A DNA stretch of 10,953 bases from a bacterium (lineage in GTDB: Bacteria > Patescibacteriota > Minisyncoccia > Phycocordibacterales > Zambryskibacteraceae): contig JAUSGI010000003.1 in assembly GCA_030649135.1 (NCBI GenBank), positions 1 through 10,953 on the forward strand. The letters run 5' to 3'. Positions 1 to 10,953 of this stretch are shown piece after piece. Each line of letters begins with the position of its first letter. Within the stretch, counting starts at the first letter, position 1. The translations under genes were made by a program, and so were the position numbers. The notes under the pieces were generated by a model that was not told the origin of the DNA, made no database searches, and worked only from the letters and a program-made list of their open reading frames with translations.

Positions 1-418
1 AGGGACTTCATCCATCACGCGGCGTCGCTCGATCAGGCTTTCGCCCATTGTCGAATATTCTCGGCTACTGCCACCCGTAGGTGTATGGACCGTGTCTCAG
101 TTCCATCGGTGGGGGTCACCCTCTCAGGTCCCCTAAGCGTCGTTGCCTTGGTAGGCCGTTACCCTACCAACTAGCTGATACTCCGCAGGCCACTCCGGAA
201 GCGAATTGCTCCTTTGGTATTGCTACCACATCTGGGATTACCCCCGCTTTCGCGAAGCTATACCAGACTTCCGGGTATGTACCTACGTATTACTACCTCG
301 TCTGCCACTAATTCAGATCGAGTCTTGCGACTTGATTTGAATCCGTTTGACTTATATGCCTCATCCACGCTGCCAGCGTTCATCCTGAGCTAGGATCAAA
401 CTCTAAATTTTAACGGAA
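1..418 (-). rRNA. rrs: 16S rRNA, 5' portion (about 415 nt). The gene continues beyond the left edge of the window.
   Basis: The reverse complement of 395-415 reads AGAGTTTGATCCTAGCTCAGG, the universal 16S 5' end. Collinear matches to 16S follow, including GAACGCTGGC, GGTAACGGCCTACCAAGGC, ACTGAGACACGGTCCA, and the 338 region as ACACCTACGGGTGGCAGTAG instead of ACTCCTACGGGAGGCAGCAG. Lengths match E. coli 16S with no insertion in the visible part. Confidence 0.93.
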
Positions 419-574
419 CAAAACAGAAAACAATATTTGGTTTCCATTTCCCCCATCGAGTCTGTCCTCGCTCACTTGGTTTCATTTTTTAGAATAGAAC
501 AGTTATTGTACTGCTCTTATCTTGTAATTCATTCAATTTTCAAAGTACACTGCCGTCCCAACTGGACGGTTTTA

Positions 575-585
575 AAGCGTAGTTA
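575..585 (-). promoter_or_regulatory. boxA-like antitermination motif in the 16S leader (minus strand CGCTTTAAAAC). A hairpin ccgtcc-N5-ggacgg lies adjacent at 554-572.
   Basis: It resembles the rrn boxA consensus (T)GCTCTTTAACAA. Position and orientation are appropriate, between the promoter and mature 16S. Confidence 0.3.
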
Positions 586-598
586 GGACGTGGGCATA

Positions 599-626
599 AG
601 TATACGGATATCATTCTTGGAGTCAA
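599..626 (-). promoter_or_regulatory. Sigma70-like promoter for the 16S rRNA: -35 TTGACT (revcomp of 621-626), 16-nt spacer, -10 TATACT (revcomp of 599-604).
   Basis: The minus strand reads gggggtcTTGACTccaagaatgatatccgTATACTtatg, 7 nt downstream of the secF stop codon and about 175 nt upstream of the 16S 5' end. Confidence 0.45.
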
Positions 627-632
627 GACCCC

Positions 633-1517
633 CTATTTCCTCCGAAATTTATAGAAAGTGACAAGCAAAGGCGAGGCCACAAAGATGGAGGAGTAGGTAC
701 CGGCAATCACTCCGATGATTAAGAGGAGGGCAAAATCTTTGGTAGCCGGAGAACCGATGAGAAAAAGGGCAAGTAGAGTTATAAAGATAGTCAGAGAAGT
801 ATTGATGGAACGACCAAATGTTTGGGTAACAGATTTCCCGACTATAACCTCGAAATCTTCGTGCGTATTCGTCTCTTTGCTGATACGTAAGTTCTCTCTA
901 ACACGGTCAAACACCACAATCGTGTCATGCACCGAGTAACCAAGAATTGCTAAGAGCCCCGTGACAAAAAGCAGGTCAATTTCTGCTCCCATGTAGTGCC
1001 CGAGCAAGACGAACGCCCCGGTCGGAATGATAATGTCGTGTGCGAGCGCCACGATAGTGGCAAGACCATATTTCCAAGACGAAACAGGTTGGGAAACCTT
1101 TCTGAAAGCAAAGGTGATAAAAAGCACAATCATCAGTATCACCACGAGAATAGCCTTGACTGCCTTGTCCTTAAGCTCTCGACCGGCTACAGGACCGATA
1201 GTGTTTTGTCTTTCCACGACGGCACTACCTAGAACCTCGATAAGCGCCTGTCTTTCCTCGGTAGTTAATTCTCTGGTACGGATGGCGTAATTAGCATCTC
1301 CGGAGGGACGAATTGAAATACCGCCCAGATTAAGCGCACCGATTTTTGATTCCACTTCATTCTGTGCCGGCCTTTCCGAAAATTTTACTTCTGTCAGGGT
1401 ACCACCCTTGAAGTCGATGGAGGTGTTAAACCCGAACACATACATTGCCCATAGAGAAACCGCGAGCAATAGACCGGAGATGGCGAAGAATATTTTCCTG
1501 TGTCGGACGATAAACAT
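633..1517 (-). CDS. secF: Protein-export membrane protein SecF
   Basis: 294 aa. N-terminal TM, the DFKGGT motif typical of SecF, and multiple C-terminal TM helices. ATG start 1 nt after the secD stop. Confidence 0.9.
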   Translation of the reverse strand: MFIVRHRKIFFAISGLLLAVSLWAMYVFGFNTSIDFKGGTLTEVKFSERPAQNEVESKIGALNLGGISIRPSGDANYAIRTRELTTEERQALIEVLGSAVVERQNTIGPVAGRELKDKAVKAILVVILMIVLFITFAFRKVSQPVSSWKYGLATIVALAHDIIIPTGAFVLLGHYMGAEIDLLFVTGLLAILGYSVHDTIVVFDRVRENLRISKETNTHEDFEVIVGKSVTQTFGRSINTSLTIFITLLALFLIGSPATKDFALLLIIGVIAGTYSSIFVASPLLVTFYKFRRK

Positions 1518-1518
1518 A

Positions 1519-9066: not shown

Positions 9067-9223
9067 AAGTTAATTTTAGCAGAGTTGGGGCAAACAAAAA
9101 GCCCCATGTATAAGCGGACTTTTTGTCTGCCGTCACAGGGCCTTAACCTCTAGAAACCCCTAGAACTCCGGATCGTGCTTCGCCCGCCACTCGATCTCGG
9201 CTAGGAGAAATTAAAATCAAGTA

Positions 9224-9334
9224 CTCTGTGCTAGCGCCTAGCTACTTTTGCCTTGCGACTATCATCGCCTCAACTGGGCTTAACTTCCGTGTTCGGAATG
9301 AGAACGGGTGGGACCCCGGCGACGAAGCACCAGA
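9224..9334 (-). rRNA. rrf: 5S rRNA (boundaries approximate, ±5 nt)
   Basis: The minus strand reads GGTCCCACCCGTTCTCATTCCGAACACGGAAGTTAAGCCCAGTTGAGGCGATGATAGT, matching the 5S loop B/helix III and loop C consensus (CCGAACACGGAAGTTAAGC, GATGGTAGT). The terminal helix pairs GUGCU with AGCAC. Confidence 0.8.
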
Positions 9335-9381
9335 ACATAAGGTTCGAATTTGTTTAAGTTGATTTCATTTAGCAGGACAGA

Positions 9382-9447
9382 GATACGAATTGTTACGAAT
9401 ATGATCGAATAGATTCGTATCATTCGATTGGATTCGCGTAAATTCGT
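9382..9447. repeat. 23S-5S spacer array. Three CGAAT motifs at about 10-nt spacing are followed by four ATTCG motifs at about 10-nt spacing, including a 9-bp inverted repeat GATACGAAT/ATTCGTATC (9382-9390 and 9413-9421).
   Basis: Read directly from the sequence tacgaattgttacgaatatgatcgaatagattcgtatcattcgattggattcgcgtaaattcgtgta. Confidence 0.5.
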
Positions 9448-9454
9448 GTAGTGA

Positions 9455-9695
9455 TTTCGAAGTTTCCTAATAGAATTCGGGCAATTAGTACGCCTCGGCT
9501 CAACACCTTGCGGTGCTTACACCTAGCGCCTATCAACCTGGTCATCTCCCAGGGCCCTAATAACGATTCCTAATCTTGGGGTTGGCTTCATTCTTAGATG
9601 CTTTCAGAATTTATCCGTGCCCGACTTAGCTACCCTGCGGTGCCCTTGGCAGGACAGCAGGTACACCAGAGGTCGGTTCAACTCGGTCCTCTCGT
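9455..9695 (-). rRNA. rrl: 23S rRNA, 3' exon (E. coli ~2657 to the 3' end). The 3' terminus is approximate.
   Basis: The minus strand starts ACGAGAGGACCGAGTTGAACCGACCTCTGGTG (the sarcin-ricin loop onward), continues through CTGAAAGCATCTAAG, and ends near GTACTAAT. Confidence 0.85.
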
Positions 9696-10491
9696 CGCGT
9701 CATTCCCCTATCACTAGGAGCGCAGACTATATCTTCACCCAAACATTTTAAAATGTTTTAGGGTGTTGGCGTATTACTTGCATATGCTGTCGTTTTCAAT
9801 GAAACGATTCCTCATTATGCAAGTCTGCCGGCTTTCACCGACAAGTCGTTACGGGGTCAAACCCAACATCTCTAACAATTCGTTTTTAGACCGCTTTTTC
9901 TTAGTAACATAATTTTCTTCTTGAATTACTAAGATAAGATCAGCTAAAACGAGTAGTTGCTTATTTATGAGTCGTCTCCGTTTGGCTAGAGAAAGAATTT
10001 CACAGGCTTTACGTAAAGCAATAGCCTGAAGTTTCTTGAAACGAATGTATGGCATAAGTGCTTTGAGTATATCTCGCACTTGTACGAATCCATTTATTCT
10101 TAATTCGGTCATTCCATCATTTCTTTTGGAAAGGTACCCGATACCAAGAATTTCTCTAACCCACATTAACGGCTTTTCATGTCGAGTGTCTTGATAGAAG
10201 CAAATGGTCGGCATAAAACGCCTTTTAAGCGCGCCGTCCTTACGCTTCTTGATTTGAAGCATTAAGCTTCCGTCTCCATCAAGAAACCCAGCAATATAAG
10301 CAAGATGATTGGATCGACTTCCCACGGTATTGTCTTGTGTTTTTCTGGTCCTCAAGTAAGTTTATACTTACCATTGTACCACTGCCTACGGACTAGGCCG
10401 GCAATAGTTATCAACAGACCAAACGTCCACAAGATTTCACCGTTATTAGCCACTTTGTCATCACAAATTACTTCGTGAAGTAGCAAAATTT
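9696..10491 (-). mobile_element. Group I self-splicing intron (about 796 nt) in the 23S rRNA, carrying a LAGLIDADG homing endonuclease ORF
   Basis: Exon continuity: ...GAGGGGATTTGACTCTAGU | intron | ACGAGAGGACC... restores the universal SRL sequence. The 5' exon ends in U and the intron ends in G (GACGCG). The P7 3' strand/S element AAGAUAUAGUCUGC (revcomp of 9722-9736) pairs with GCAGACU about 60 nt upstream. There is a P8-like hairpin CGUUU..AAACG, and a P9 hairpin UCCUA-GUGA-UAGGG with a GNRA tetraloop just before the 3' splice site. Confidence 0.75.
9849..10355 (-). CDS. LAGLIDADG homing endonuclease, single-motif and I-CreI-like, encoded in the intron. TTG start with an in-frame TAA 3 codons upstream.
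   Basis: 168 aa. LAYIAGFLDGDGSL motif at residues 18-31. Basic C-terminal region. Located in a peripheral loop upstream of P7. Confidence 0.8.
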   Translation of the reverse strand: MRTRKTQDNTVGSRSNHLAYIAGFLDGDGSLMLQIKKRKDGALKRRFMPTICFYQDTRHEKPLMWVREILGIGYLSKRNDGMTELRINGFVQVRDILKALMPYIRFKKLQAIALRKACEILSLAKRRRLINKQLLVLADLILVIQEENYVTKKKRSKNELLEMLGLTP

Positions 10492-10953
10492 ACTAGAGTC
10501 AAATCCCCTCAAGAATCGAACGCCTGCAGTAGATAGGAGTCCAACCTGTCTCACGACGGTCTGAACCCAGCTCGCGTAACTTTTTAAATGGCGAACAGCC
10601 ATACCCTTGGAAGCTTCTCCACCTCCAGGATAAGTTGAGCCGACATCGAGGTGCCGAACTGCGCCGTCGCTATGGACGCTTAGGCGCAACCAGCCTGTTA
10701 TCCCCAGGGTAGCTTTTATCCTTTGATCTTCCGCCGCATCTAACGCGTACGGTCGGCTCACTATGCTCTGCTTTCGCACCTGTTTGACATGTACGTCTCA
10801 CAGTCAAGCCAGCTTGTGCCATTACACTATCGGCACGGTTTCCATTCGCGCCTAGCTGACCTTAATAGAATCCTCCGTTACTTTTTGGGAGGAGAGCGCC
10901 CCACTCAAACTGCCCGCCAGATACTGTTTCTCGCCGTTTTTTCCGTCGAGGTT
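10492..10953 (-). rRNA. rrl: 23S rRNA, 5' exon portion (E. coli ~2190-2656; continues beyond the right edge)
   Basis: The minus strand is collinear with 23S domain V: CTCCTCCCAAAAAGTAACGGAGG, GGATAAAAGCTACCCTGGGGATAACAGGCTG, CACCTCGATGTCGGCTC, CCAAGGGTATGGCTGTTCGCCATTTAAA, TACGCGAGCTGGGTTCAGACCGTCGTGAGACAGGTTGG. There is no length anomaly other than the intron. Confidence 0.9.

Follow-up and report, generated by a model that had tools for sequence, protein, structure and literature searches.

The stretch of DNA examined here, referred to as the window, is the whole of contig JAUSGI010000003.1 (10,953 nt) from a metagenome-assembled genome (MAG), and both of its ends break within ribosomal RNA (rRNA) genes. 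According to an Rfam scan of the whole window, the features met along the minus strand are the 3' third of a 23S rRNA gene, a 5S rRNA gene, eight protein genes, and the 5' part of a 16S rRNA gene (Table 1); the rRNA matches have E-values of 1e-10 to 1e-172, which is far past chance. These results agree with the initial annotation, which had placed 23S and 5S upstream of 16S on the minus strand with about 9 kb of protein genes between them, although two of its boundaries have to be moved: the 5' end of 16S lies at 411 rather than 418, and the 5S gene ends at 9229 rather than 9224. Its count of eight intervening protein genes also stands; however, only six of them are on the rRNA strand, whereas the genes for a GT4 glycosyltransferase and a PaaX_M-like protein are on the plus strand. 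From the end of 5S (9229) to the start of 16S (411), the distance is 8,817 nt, at which rRNA genes count as unlinked, and the two plus-strand genes between the rRNA units likewise mark the units as unlinked. The canonical arrangement, in which 16S, often with tRNA genes behind it, 23S, and 5S follow one another in one transcription unit, is thus absent, as 5S and 16S are separated both by 8.8 kb and by opposite-strand genes. No tRNA gene was found anywhere in the window, including the 142-nt spacer between 23S and 5S. Exact-protein look-ups made to extend the contig returned only Logan contigs of 2.6 kb and 4.2 kb (SRR13727527) for SecF and RodA, and no record at all for the VWA protein.

Table 1. 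Features of the window, listed in the direction of the minus strand
Feature	Position	Strand	Evidence and remarks
23S rRNA gene, 3' part	10953..9477	minus	Rfam LSU_rRNA_bacteria, model 2223-2912 of 2925, 528.5 bits; cut at contig end
23S exon 5' of intron	10492..10953	minus	Rfam LSU model from 2223; contig end cuts exon
Intron in 23S sarcin-ricin loop	9696..10491 (796 nt)	minus	CUAGU / ... G / ACGAGAGGACC; Rfam leaves an 806-nt insertion unaligned
LAGLIDADG homing-endonuclease open reading frame (ORF; 168 aa) in intron	9849..10355	minus	PF00961, 36.7 bits against cut-off 23.1, E = 8.3e-9
23S 3' exon	9477..9695	minus	Rfam alignment up to model position 2912 of 2925
23S helix-1/processing-stem extension, putative 3' strand	9451..9472	minus	TATTAGGAAACTTCGAAATCAC; partner upstream of 23S, outside contig
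Second conserved 23S trailer strand	9358..9378	minus	GTCCTGCTAAATGAAATCAAC; partner leader motif GATTTCATTTAGCAGGA
5S rRNA gene	9334..9229	minus	RF00001, 58.4 bits, full length
Terminator-like hairpin (9142..9100) and T-run (9099..9091)	9091..9142	minus	T-run TTTTGTTTG; free energy (dG) -18.4; ends 24 nt before VWA start
VWA-domain protein (465 aa)	7669..9066	minus	PF00092, 1.5e-22; syntenic in relatives
RodA/FtsW (SEDS) protein (369 aa)	6563..7672	minus	Domain and family profile matches, homologues
GT4 glycosyltransferase	5469..6566	plus	Profile matches
Top sigma-70-like site in window	5462..5490	minus	TTGACA-17-TATAGT, 11/12 consensus matches only; upstream of REC-like gene
REC-like small protein (121 aa)	5035..5400	minus	PF00072, 25.9 bits, below the 30.2 cut-off
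GC-rich palindromic hairpin, 11 bp (10 GC)	4968..4993		42 nt past REC-like stop (consensus scan)
PaaX_M/Cas2-like-domain protein (189 aa)	4311..4880	plus	Profile match
Polyprenyl glycosylphosphotransferase (Bac_transf, 449 aa)	2858..4207	minus	TIGR03025, 303 bits
SecD	1519..2844	minus	TIGR01129, 366 bits
SecF	633..1517	minus	TIGR00966, 258.6 bits
Promoter-like site, putative 16S promoter	599..626	minus	TTGACT-16-TATACT; 7 nt past secF stop, ~185 nt before 16S
boxB-like hairpin	569..553	minus	CCGTCCAGTTGGGACGG; recognisable in most of 12 aligned leaders
boxA-like element	548..531	minus	GTACTTTGAAAATTGAAT; recognisable in most of 12 aligned leaders
16S processing stem, putative 5' strand	412..436	minus	ATATTGTTTTCTGTTTTGTTCCGTT; directly 5' of 16S; 3' partner past contig end
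16S rRNA gene, 5' part	411..1	minus	Rfam model 1-418, 341.2 bits; cut at contig end

Apart from an NCBI MAG protein that is 100% identical, the closest matches of the window's RodA (74-85% identity) carry the names Patescibacteria, Zambryskibacteria, or Minisyncoccia, which points to a genome of the Paceibacteria (Zambryskibacteria-like; candidate phyla radiation (CPR)/Patescibacteria). Many of these matches lie on contigs of approx. 9-12 kb, a first hint that an rRNA-flanked block breaks many assemblies. A RodA scan of GTDB species representatives provided 80 further loci with 56-85% RodA identity, and the 85 related loci obtained in all (designated here by numbers with the prefix L) include a closed chromosome of 617,472 bp (OZ244961.1), contigs of 680 and 474 kb, and loci titled Kaiserbacteria. 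The rRNA genes (by BLAST), the window proteins, and tRNAs were mapped on all loci, and twelve loci were checked with Rfam, which reported one 23S, one 5S, and one 16S gene on one strand in L002, L004, L005, L006, L011, L022, L029, L040, L045, L073, and L076. 23S/5S genes lie upstream of VWA-RodA on the same strand in 70 of the 85 loci, and a 16S gene lies downstream of secF on the same strand in 40. Both halves are present in 37 loci, all from independent assemblies and including the closed chromosome; the 5S-to-16S gap in these ranges from 6,799 to 12,012 nt (median 8,962), compared with 8,817 nt in the window. Neither a 16S gene upstream of RodA nor a 23S gene downstream of it was found in any of the 85 loci. 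In L002, the gene order is 23S-5S-VWA-RodA-GT4-REC-PaaX_M-Bac_transf-SecD-SecF-16S, followed by tRNA-Ile(GAT) and protein genes; the same order, again with tRNA-Ile(GAT) and protein genes past 16S, is found in L004, a Zambryskibacteria MAG. On the 99.8-kb contig of L006, msrA, msrB, and other protein genes are situated directly upstream of the complete 23S gene, and no 16S gene is present there. Among all loci with a complete 16S gene, tRNA-Ile(GAT) follows it in 12 of 16, on the 16S strand in 10 of them. Moreover, 30 loci begin within 23S and 22 end within 16S, which explains where the window breaks.

The region between secF and 16S contains a set of signals of the kind found in rrn leaders. 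A promoter-like site lies just past the secF stop codon, and matching -35/-10-like hexamers are present at the same spot in L002, L032, and L014. It is followed by a hairpin and by GTACTTTGAAAATTGAAT, which resemble the boxB and boxA (TGCTCTTTAACAA) of E. coli rrn leaders. The motif ATATTGTTTTCTGTTTTGTTCCGTT immediately 5' of 16S pairs over approx. 23-28 bp with a trailer sequence that begins 99-193 nt past 16S in every one of the 16 relatives whose 16S gene is complete (dG -29 to -41). In a two-strand alignment, this leader/trailer stem comprises 24 consensus pairs, 13 of which show compensatory double changes. The arrangement predicted from the aligned sequences is the one classically seen in RNase III processing stems, and the stem would enclose 16S alone.

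Corresponding signals accompany the 23S-5S unit. In six relatives whose 23S gene is complete, the leader sequence ...GTGGTTTTTAAATTTCCTAATA, whose motif is conserved, pairs with the trailer sequence TATTAGGAAAC...AAATCAC. In several relatives, a second stem is formed by the leader motif GATTTCATTTAGCAGGA and GTCCTGCTAAATGGAATC, and this pairing is clear in L006, L011, L022, L029, and L059. Several relatives also have a terminator-like element (GCGGTTTTTT) and boxA-like sequences upstream of 23S, which is consistent with an independent start of the 23S unit; in the split layout, 23S must have its own promoter. At the other end of the unit, the hairpin and T-run between 5S and VWA were identified by a custom scan, the consensus scan having listed none on the minus strand there. 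The spacer has a fold z-score of -3.6, and its ...CATGGGGCT TTTTGTTTG element recurs in L002, L003, and L047. The hairpin is terminator-like, and transcription would be expected to terminate there after 5S. When the spacers of 66 relatives and the window are considered together, 45 of the 67 contain a terminator-like hairpin, often a textbook-like one. Among the 64 relatives whose 5S-VWA gap could be measured, however, 13 have a VWA ORF that begins no more than 60 nt past 5S, with no terminator-like hairpin in the gap in 10 of them; L004, L005, L008, and L025 have a gap of 25 nt. Separate transcription and processing signals can therefore be recognized for each unit at the level of sequence, which supports the view that 16S and 23S-5S are two self-contained units, with promoter use and cleavage as predicted features.

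These observations are best explained by a single split rRNA set in which 23S-5S and 16S would form two independent transcription units; we put the probability of this reading at roughly 90%. One of the possibilities raised by the initial annotation, a single split rRNA locus of the "unlinked" type reported for CPR genomes, is thereby upheld, since the order recurs in 37 related assemblies. A split set is preferred over tandem operons or a chimera because relatives keep the order and lack the partner 16S and 23S genes. According to the proposed scheme, an intron-bearing 23S-5S unit would be followed 8.8 kb downstream, on the same strand, by a 16S unit. The latter would start at its own promoter just past secF, with a boxB/boxA-like leader, and in most relatives with a complete 16S gene it is followed by tRNA-Ile(GAT). 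Each rRNA would be released from a precursor of its own, presumably by RNase III, at the leader/trailer stem that belongs to it, and the contig would end in rRNA genes only because short-read assemblers break at conserved rRNA stretches.

Several points weigh against this interpretation. The window ends in both large rRNA genes; for this genome, we infer from the relatives that no second 16S or 23S gene exists and that the rRNA set is present in a single copy. The closest relative with a complete 16S gene, L002, is 85% identical in RodA and 97% identical in 16S over 411 nt. The promoter and terminator calls are consensus matches that occur at the background rate (12 promoter-like sites in comparison with 14.1 expected). 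Finally, seven loci with 3.4-7 kb of sequence past secF have no nearby 16S gene (L056, L060, L068, L071, L074, L079, and L080); thus, the position of 16S is not fixed across the whole clade.

It is also conceivable that the window encodes one long precursor that runs from 23S through 5S and the 9-kb block into 16S, i.e., a circularly permuted operon. Only two of the eight protein genes lie on the strand opposite to that of the three rRNA genes, the boxA-like elements found upstream of 23S in relatives could render the polymerase resistant to terminators, and in 13 relatives VWA closely follows 5S, 10 of them lacking the hairpin. However, such a transcript would be antisense to the GT4 and PaaX_M-like genes, and it would have to pass both the terminator-like hairpin after 5S and the hairpin with 10 GC pairs past the REC-like gene; moreover, a promoter-like site for 16S and a complete rrn-type leader are situated right after secF. 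A permuted precursor is therefore highly improbable.

Still less credit is due to a second possibility, also raised by the initial annotation, that two complete 16S-23S-5S operons lie in tandem less than 10 kb apart and that the contig runs from the end of one into the beginning of the other. The window, cut as it is inside 23S and inside 16S, would look the same in that case, but the relatives would not: a 16S gene is missing from the 2.4-4.9 kb of flank that 15 loci show upstream of a complete 23S gene, and no 23S gene comes after 16S in the 16 loci whose 16S gene is complete. In particular, tRNA-Ile and then protein genes follow 16S in L002 and L004, the two closest such relatives, and the set of relatives includes a closed chromosome. 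In addition, circularised genomes of Paceibacteria are each listed with one distance between small-subunit (SSU) and large-subunit (LSU) rRNA genes in a survey by Lui, Nielsen and Arkin (2021, PMC8172020). Least probable of all is an assembly chimera, in which foreign rRNA fragments from the community would have been joined to a protein contig at conserved rRNA: contig ends in conserved rRNA are a common place for misjoins, but the key junctions (5S-VWA and secF-16S leader) lie in non-conserved, lineage-specific sequence and are found again in dozens of assemblies made independently in different studies, the closed chromosome OZ244961.1 included, and the relatives that share the protein genes also have the most similar 16S leader, 5S spacer hairpin, and intron ORF.

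The initial annotation had suggested that the intervening genes, secDF among them, might be subject to read-through from rRNA promoters. For Bac_transf, SecD, and SecF, this is implausible because the transcript would run antisense through the GT4 and PaaX_M-like genes and past the hairpin at 4993..4968; for secDF, the terminator-like hairpin that follows 5S is a further reason. Only VWA and RodA, whose genes come immediately behind 5S, remain as candidates. No promoter-like site was found in the 5S-VWA spacer of the window by the consensus scan. It is nevertheless rather unlikely that VWA-RodA lacks a promoter of its own and is expressed by leaky read-through from 23S-5S. If it were, the cell would couple the production of a cell-wall elongation protein to rRNA transcription.

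The 23S gene of the window is interrupted in the sarcin-ricin loop. As read from the sequence, the 5' exon ends with U (...CUAGU, 10492), the intron ends with G, and the 3' exon begins with ACGAGAGGACC; the insertion site is a conserved rRNA site that corresponds to position 2657 of E. coli, and both the U that precedes the intron and the G at its 3' end are present. The Rfam model Intron_gpI matches the insert with 30.1 bits (E = 2.8e-5), below the gathering score of 50, and the intron probably belongs to group I. It also encodes an endonuclease of the LAGLIDADG type, and this ORF is 86% identical to a 168-aa ORF at the same 23S site in L005. Position 2657 of 23S is a recurrent insertion site of LAGLIDADG_1 elements in CPR bacteria (Tsurumaki et al. 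2024, PMC11270868). The window insert resembles the elements described there (site 2657 is among 23IS12-14) in being situated between U and ACGAGAGGACC and in encoding a single-domain LAGLIDADG_1 protein; it differs in its low score with the group I model, and its splicing is predicted. The intron is thus an already catalogued element.

The rRNA genes of relatives carry further insertions and additions. Several relatives have big insertions near the 3' end of 16S (L006, approx. 19175-20000; L011, approx. 18705-19553; L047, approx. 18113-18908 and approx. 19507-20498); the insertion in L006 contains a LAGLIDADG ORF, and that in L011 gives a match to a group II intron domain. No insertion was detected by Rfam in the part of 16S present in the window (model 1-418). 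tRNA genes were observed inside 23S in L040 (6352-6424 and 6449-6519, within a 23S gene at 4947-8679), L045 (4527-4600), and L042 (4009-4277), with Rfam scores of 61.9, 50, and 67.3 bits. They are located in a large insertion in the helix-45 loop, at approx. position 1218 of the Rfam LSU model, which is the classical site of intervening sequences; the window lies outside this part of 23S. Excision of these tRNAs would split 23S into two pieces. A literature search found no report of tRNA genes within 23S intervening sequences.

Other additions are found around 5S. In many relatives, one to four tRNA genes are located between 23S and 5S (e.g., L022, 3760-3832; L029, 7768-7840 and 7849-7922; L073, 8842-8939), and further carriers are L028, L031, L035, L037, L038, L043, L052, L055, and L070. 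Some of these tRNAs gave odd ARAGORN calls or have unusual lengths (98-129 nt in L073 and L045) and may be intron-containing tRNAs. A partial second 5S-like copy, corresponding to approx. the 3' 35-70 nt, lies just past 5S in L006 (8923-8986), L008, L009, L011, L023, L026, L062, and L066. By BLAST mapping, the window has no such copy.

The protein genes between the two rRNA units form a block whose order is mostly conserved across the clade, with the exception of the REC-like and PaaX_M-like genes, which are present in only some relatives. A 141-aa ORF at 4960-5385 on the plus strand was considered as the eighth gene and rejected as a shadow of the minus-strand REC-like gene (5400..5035). In a comparison with the L002 orthologue, 50 of 82 substitutions fall at third codon positions of the REC-like minus frame, and gene callers picked the minus strand in two other assemblies. 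The minus-strand ORF is regarded as the real gene because of this third-position bias, the choice of the gene callers, and the promoter-like site and hairpin that flank it. The RodA (minus) and GT4 (plus) genes are convergent and share 4 nt where their stop codons meet (6563-6566), which leaves no room for a terminator between them. The PaaX_M-like gene is exactly bracketed by 36-nt direct repeats (4276-4311 and 4881-4916; 83% identical, 605 nt apart), and one copy each of the 16-nt repeat core is found in L004 and L005. These repeats could be copies of an operator/promoter or the ends of a small inserted cassette.

The layout has practical consequences. In this clade, the approx. 9-kb block between the rRNA units routinely comes out of assembly as a separate contig of 9-12 kb with partial rRNA ends, which affects binning and the linkage of 16S sequences to genomes, and long amplicons that span 16S, the internal transcribed spacer, and 23S cannot work for these organisms. 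The largely conserved block, together with the self-contained stems, provides a clean comparative set for studies of the transcription and maturation of split rRNA in CPR bacteria.

In comparison with the canonical rrn operon, the locus has the same three genes, boxA-like leader elements, and stems that flank each large rRNA; however, the order and linkage are broken, and 23S needs a promoter of its own. As in the canonical rrn spacer, tRNA-Ile(GAT) still follows 16S in most relatives with a complete 16S gene, and it looks like a remnant of the old spacer. tRNA-Ala, which was sought upstream of 23S as the other half of the broken spacer, was not found in any surveyed locus, and the loci of the RodA scan (RodA identity of at least 56%) include no outgroup with the canonical order. 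As to the origin of the split, the observed order would result if a 16S-tRNA-Ile segment had been relocated beyond a block that was by then situated behind 5S; it would also result from a tandem duplication of the operon and the block followed by reciprocal losses.

Two separate rRNA units in a small genome are likewise found in H. pylori, Rickettsia, Buchnera, and Wolbachia. In these classic examples, the units are usually described as lying far apart or as having no conserved neighbourhood, whereas the clade studied here keeps them 7-12 kb apart around a largely conserved block. In H. pylori, atypical rRNA precursors are reported to be processed by RNase III at flanking stems (PMC6582327), and this matches the separate stems predicted in this clade. 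The closest parallels come from the CPR itself. In Brewer et al. (10.1101/705046), Patescibacteria form a coherent cluster with unlinked rRNA genes, and in PMC8172020, unlinked 16S and 23S genes are reported for 27 of 34 circularised CPR genomes. S1 Table of the latter lists several Paceibacteria, four Kaiserbacteria among them, with SSU-LSU distances of 6.5-16.4 kb and with 5S nearer to 16S than 23S is. The same holds for the window, in which 5S lies closer to 16S than 23S does and the SSU-LSU distance is approx. 12-13 kb when the missing part of 23S is added. The intervening genes, the tRNA-Ile past 16S, and the separate covarying stems are not named in the accessible parts of these two papers; the VWA-RodA...SecDF block, the tRNA-Ile, and the stems are added detail and do not define a new kind of arrangement. 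What had at first appeared unusual is thus the norm in this lineage: the split layout is normal and already published for the Paceibacteria clade, and nothing essential sets the window apart from that pattern.

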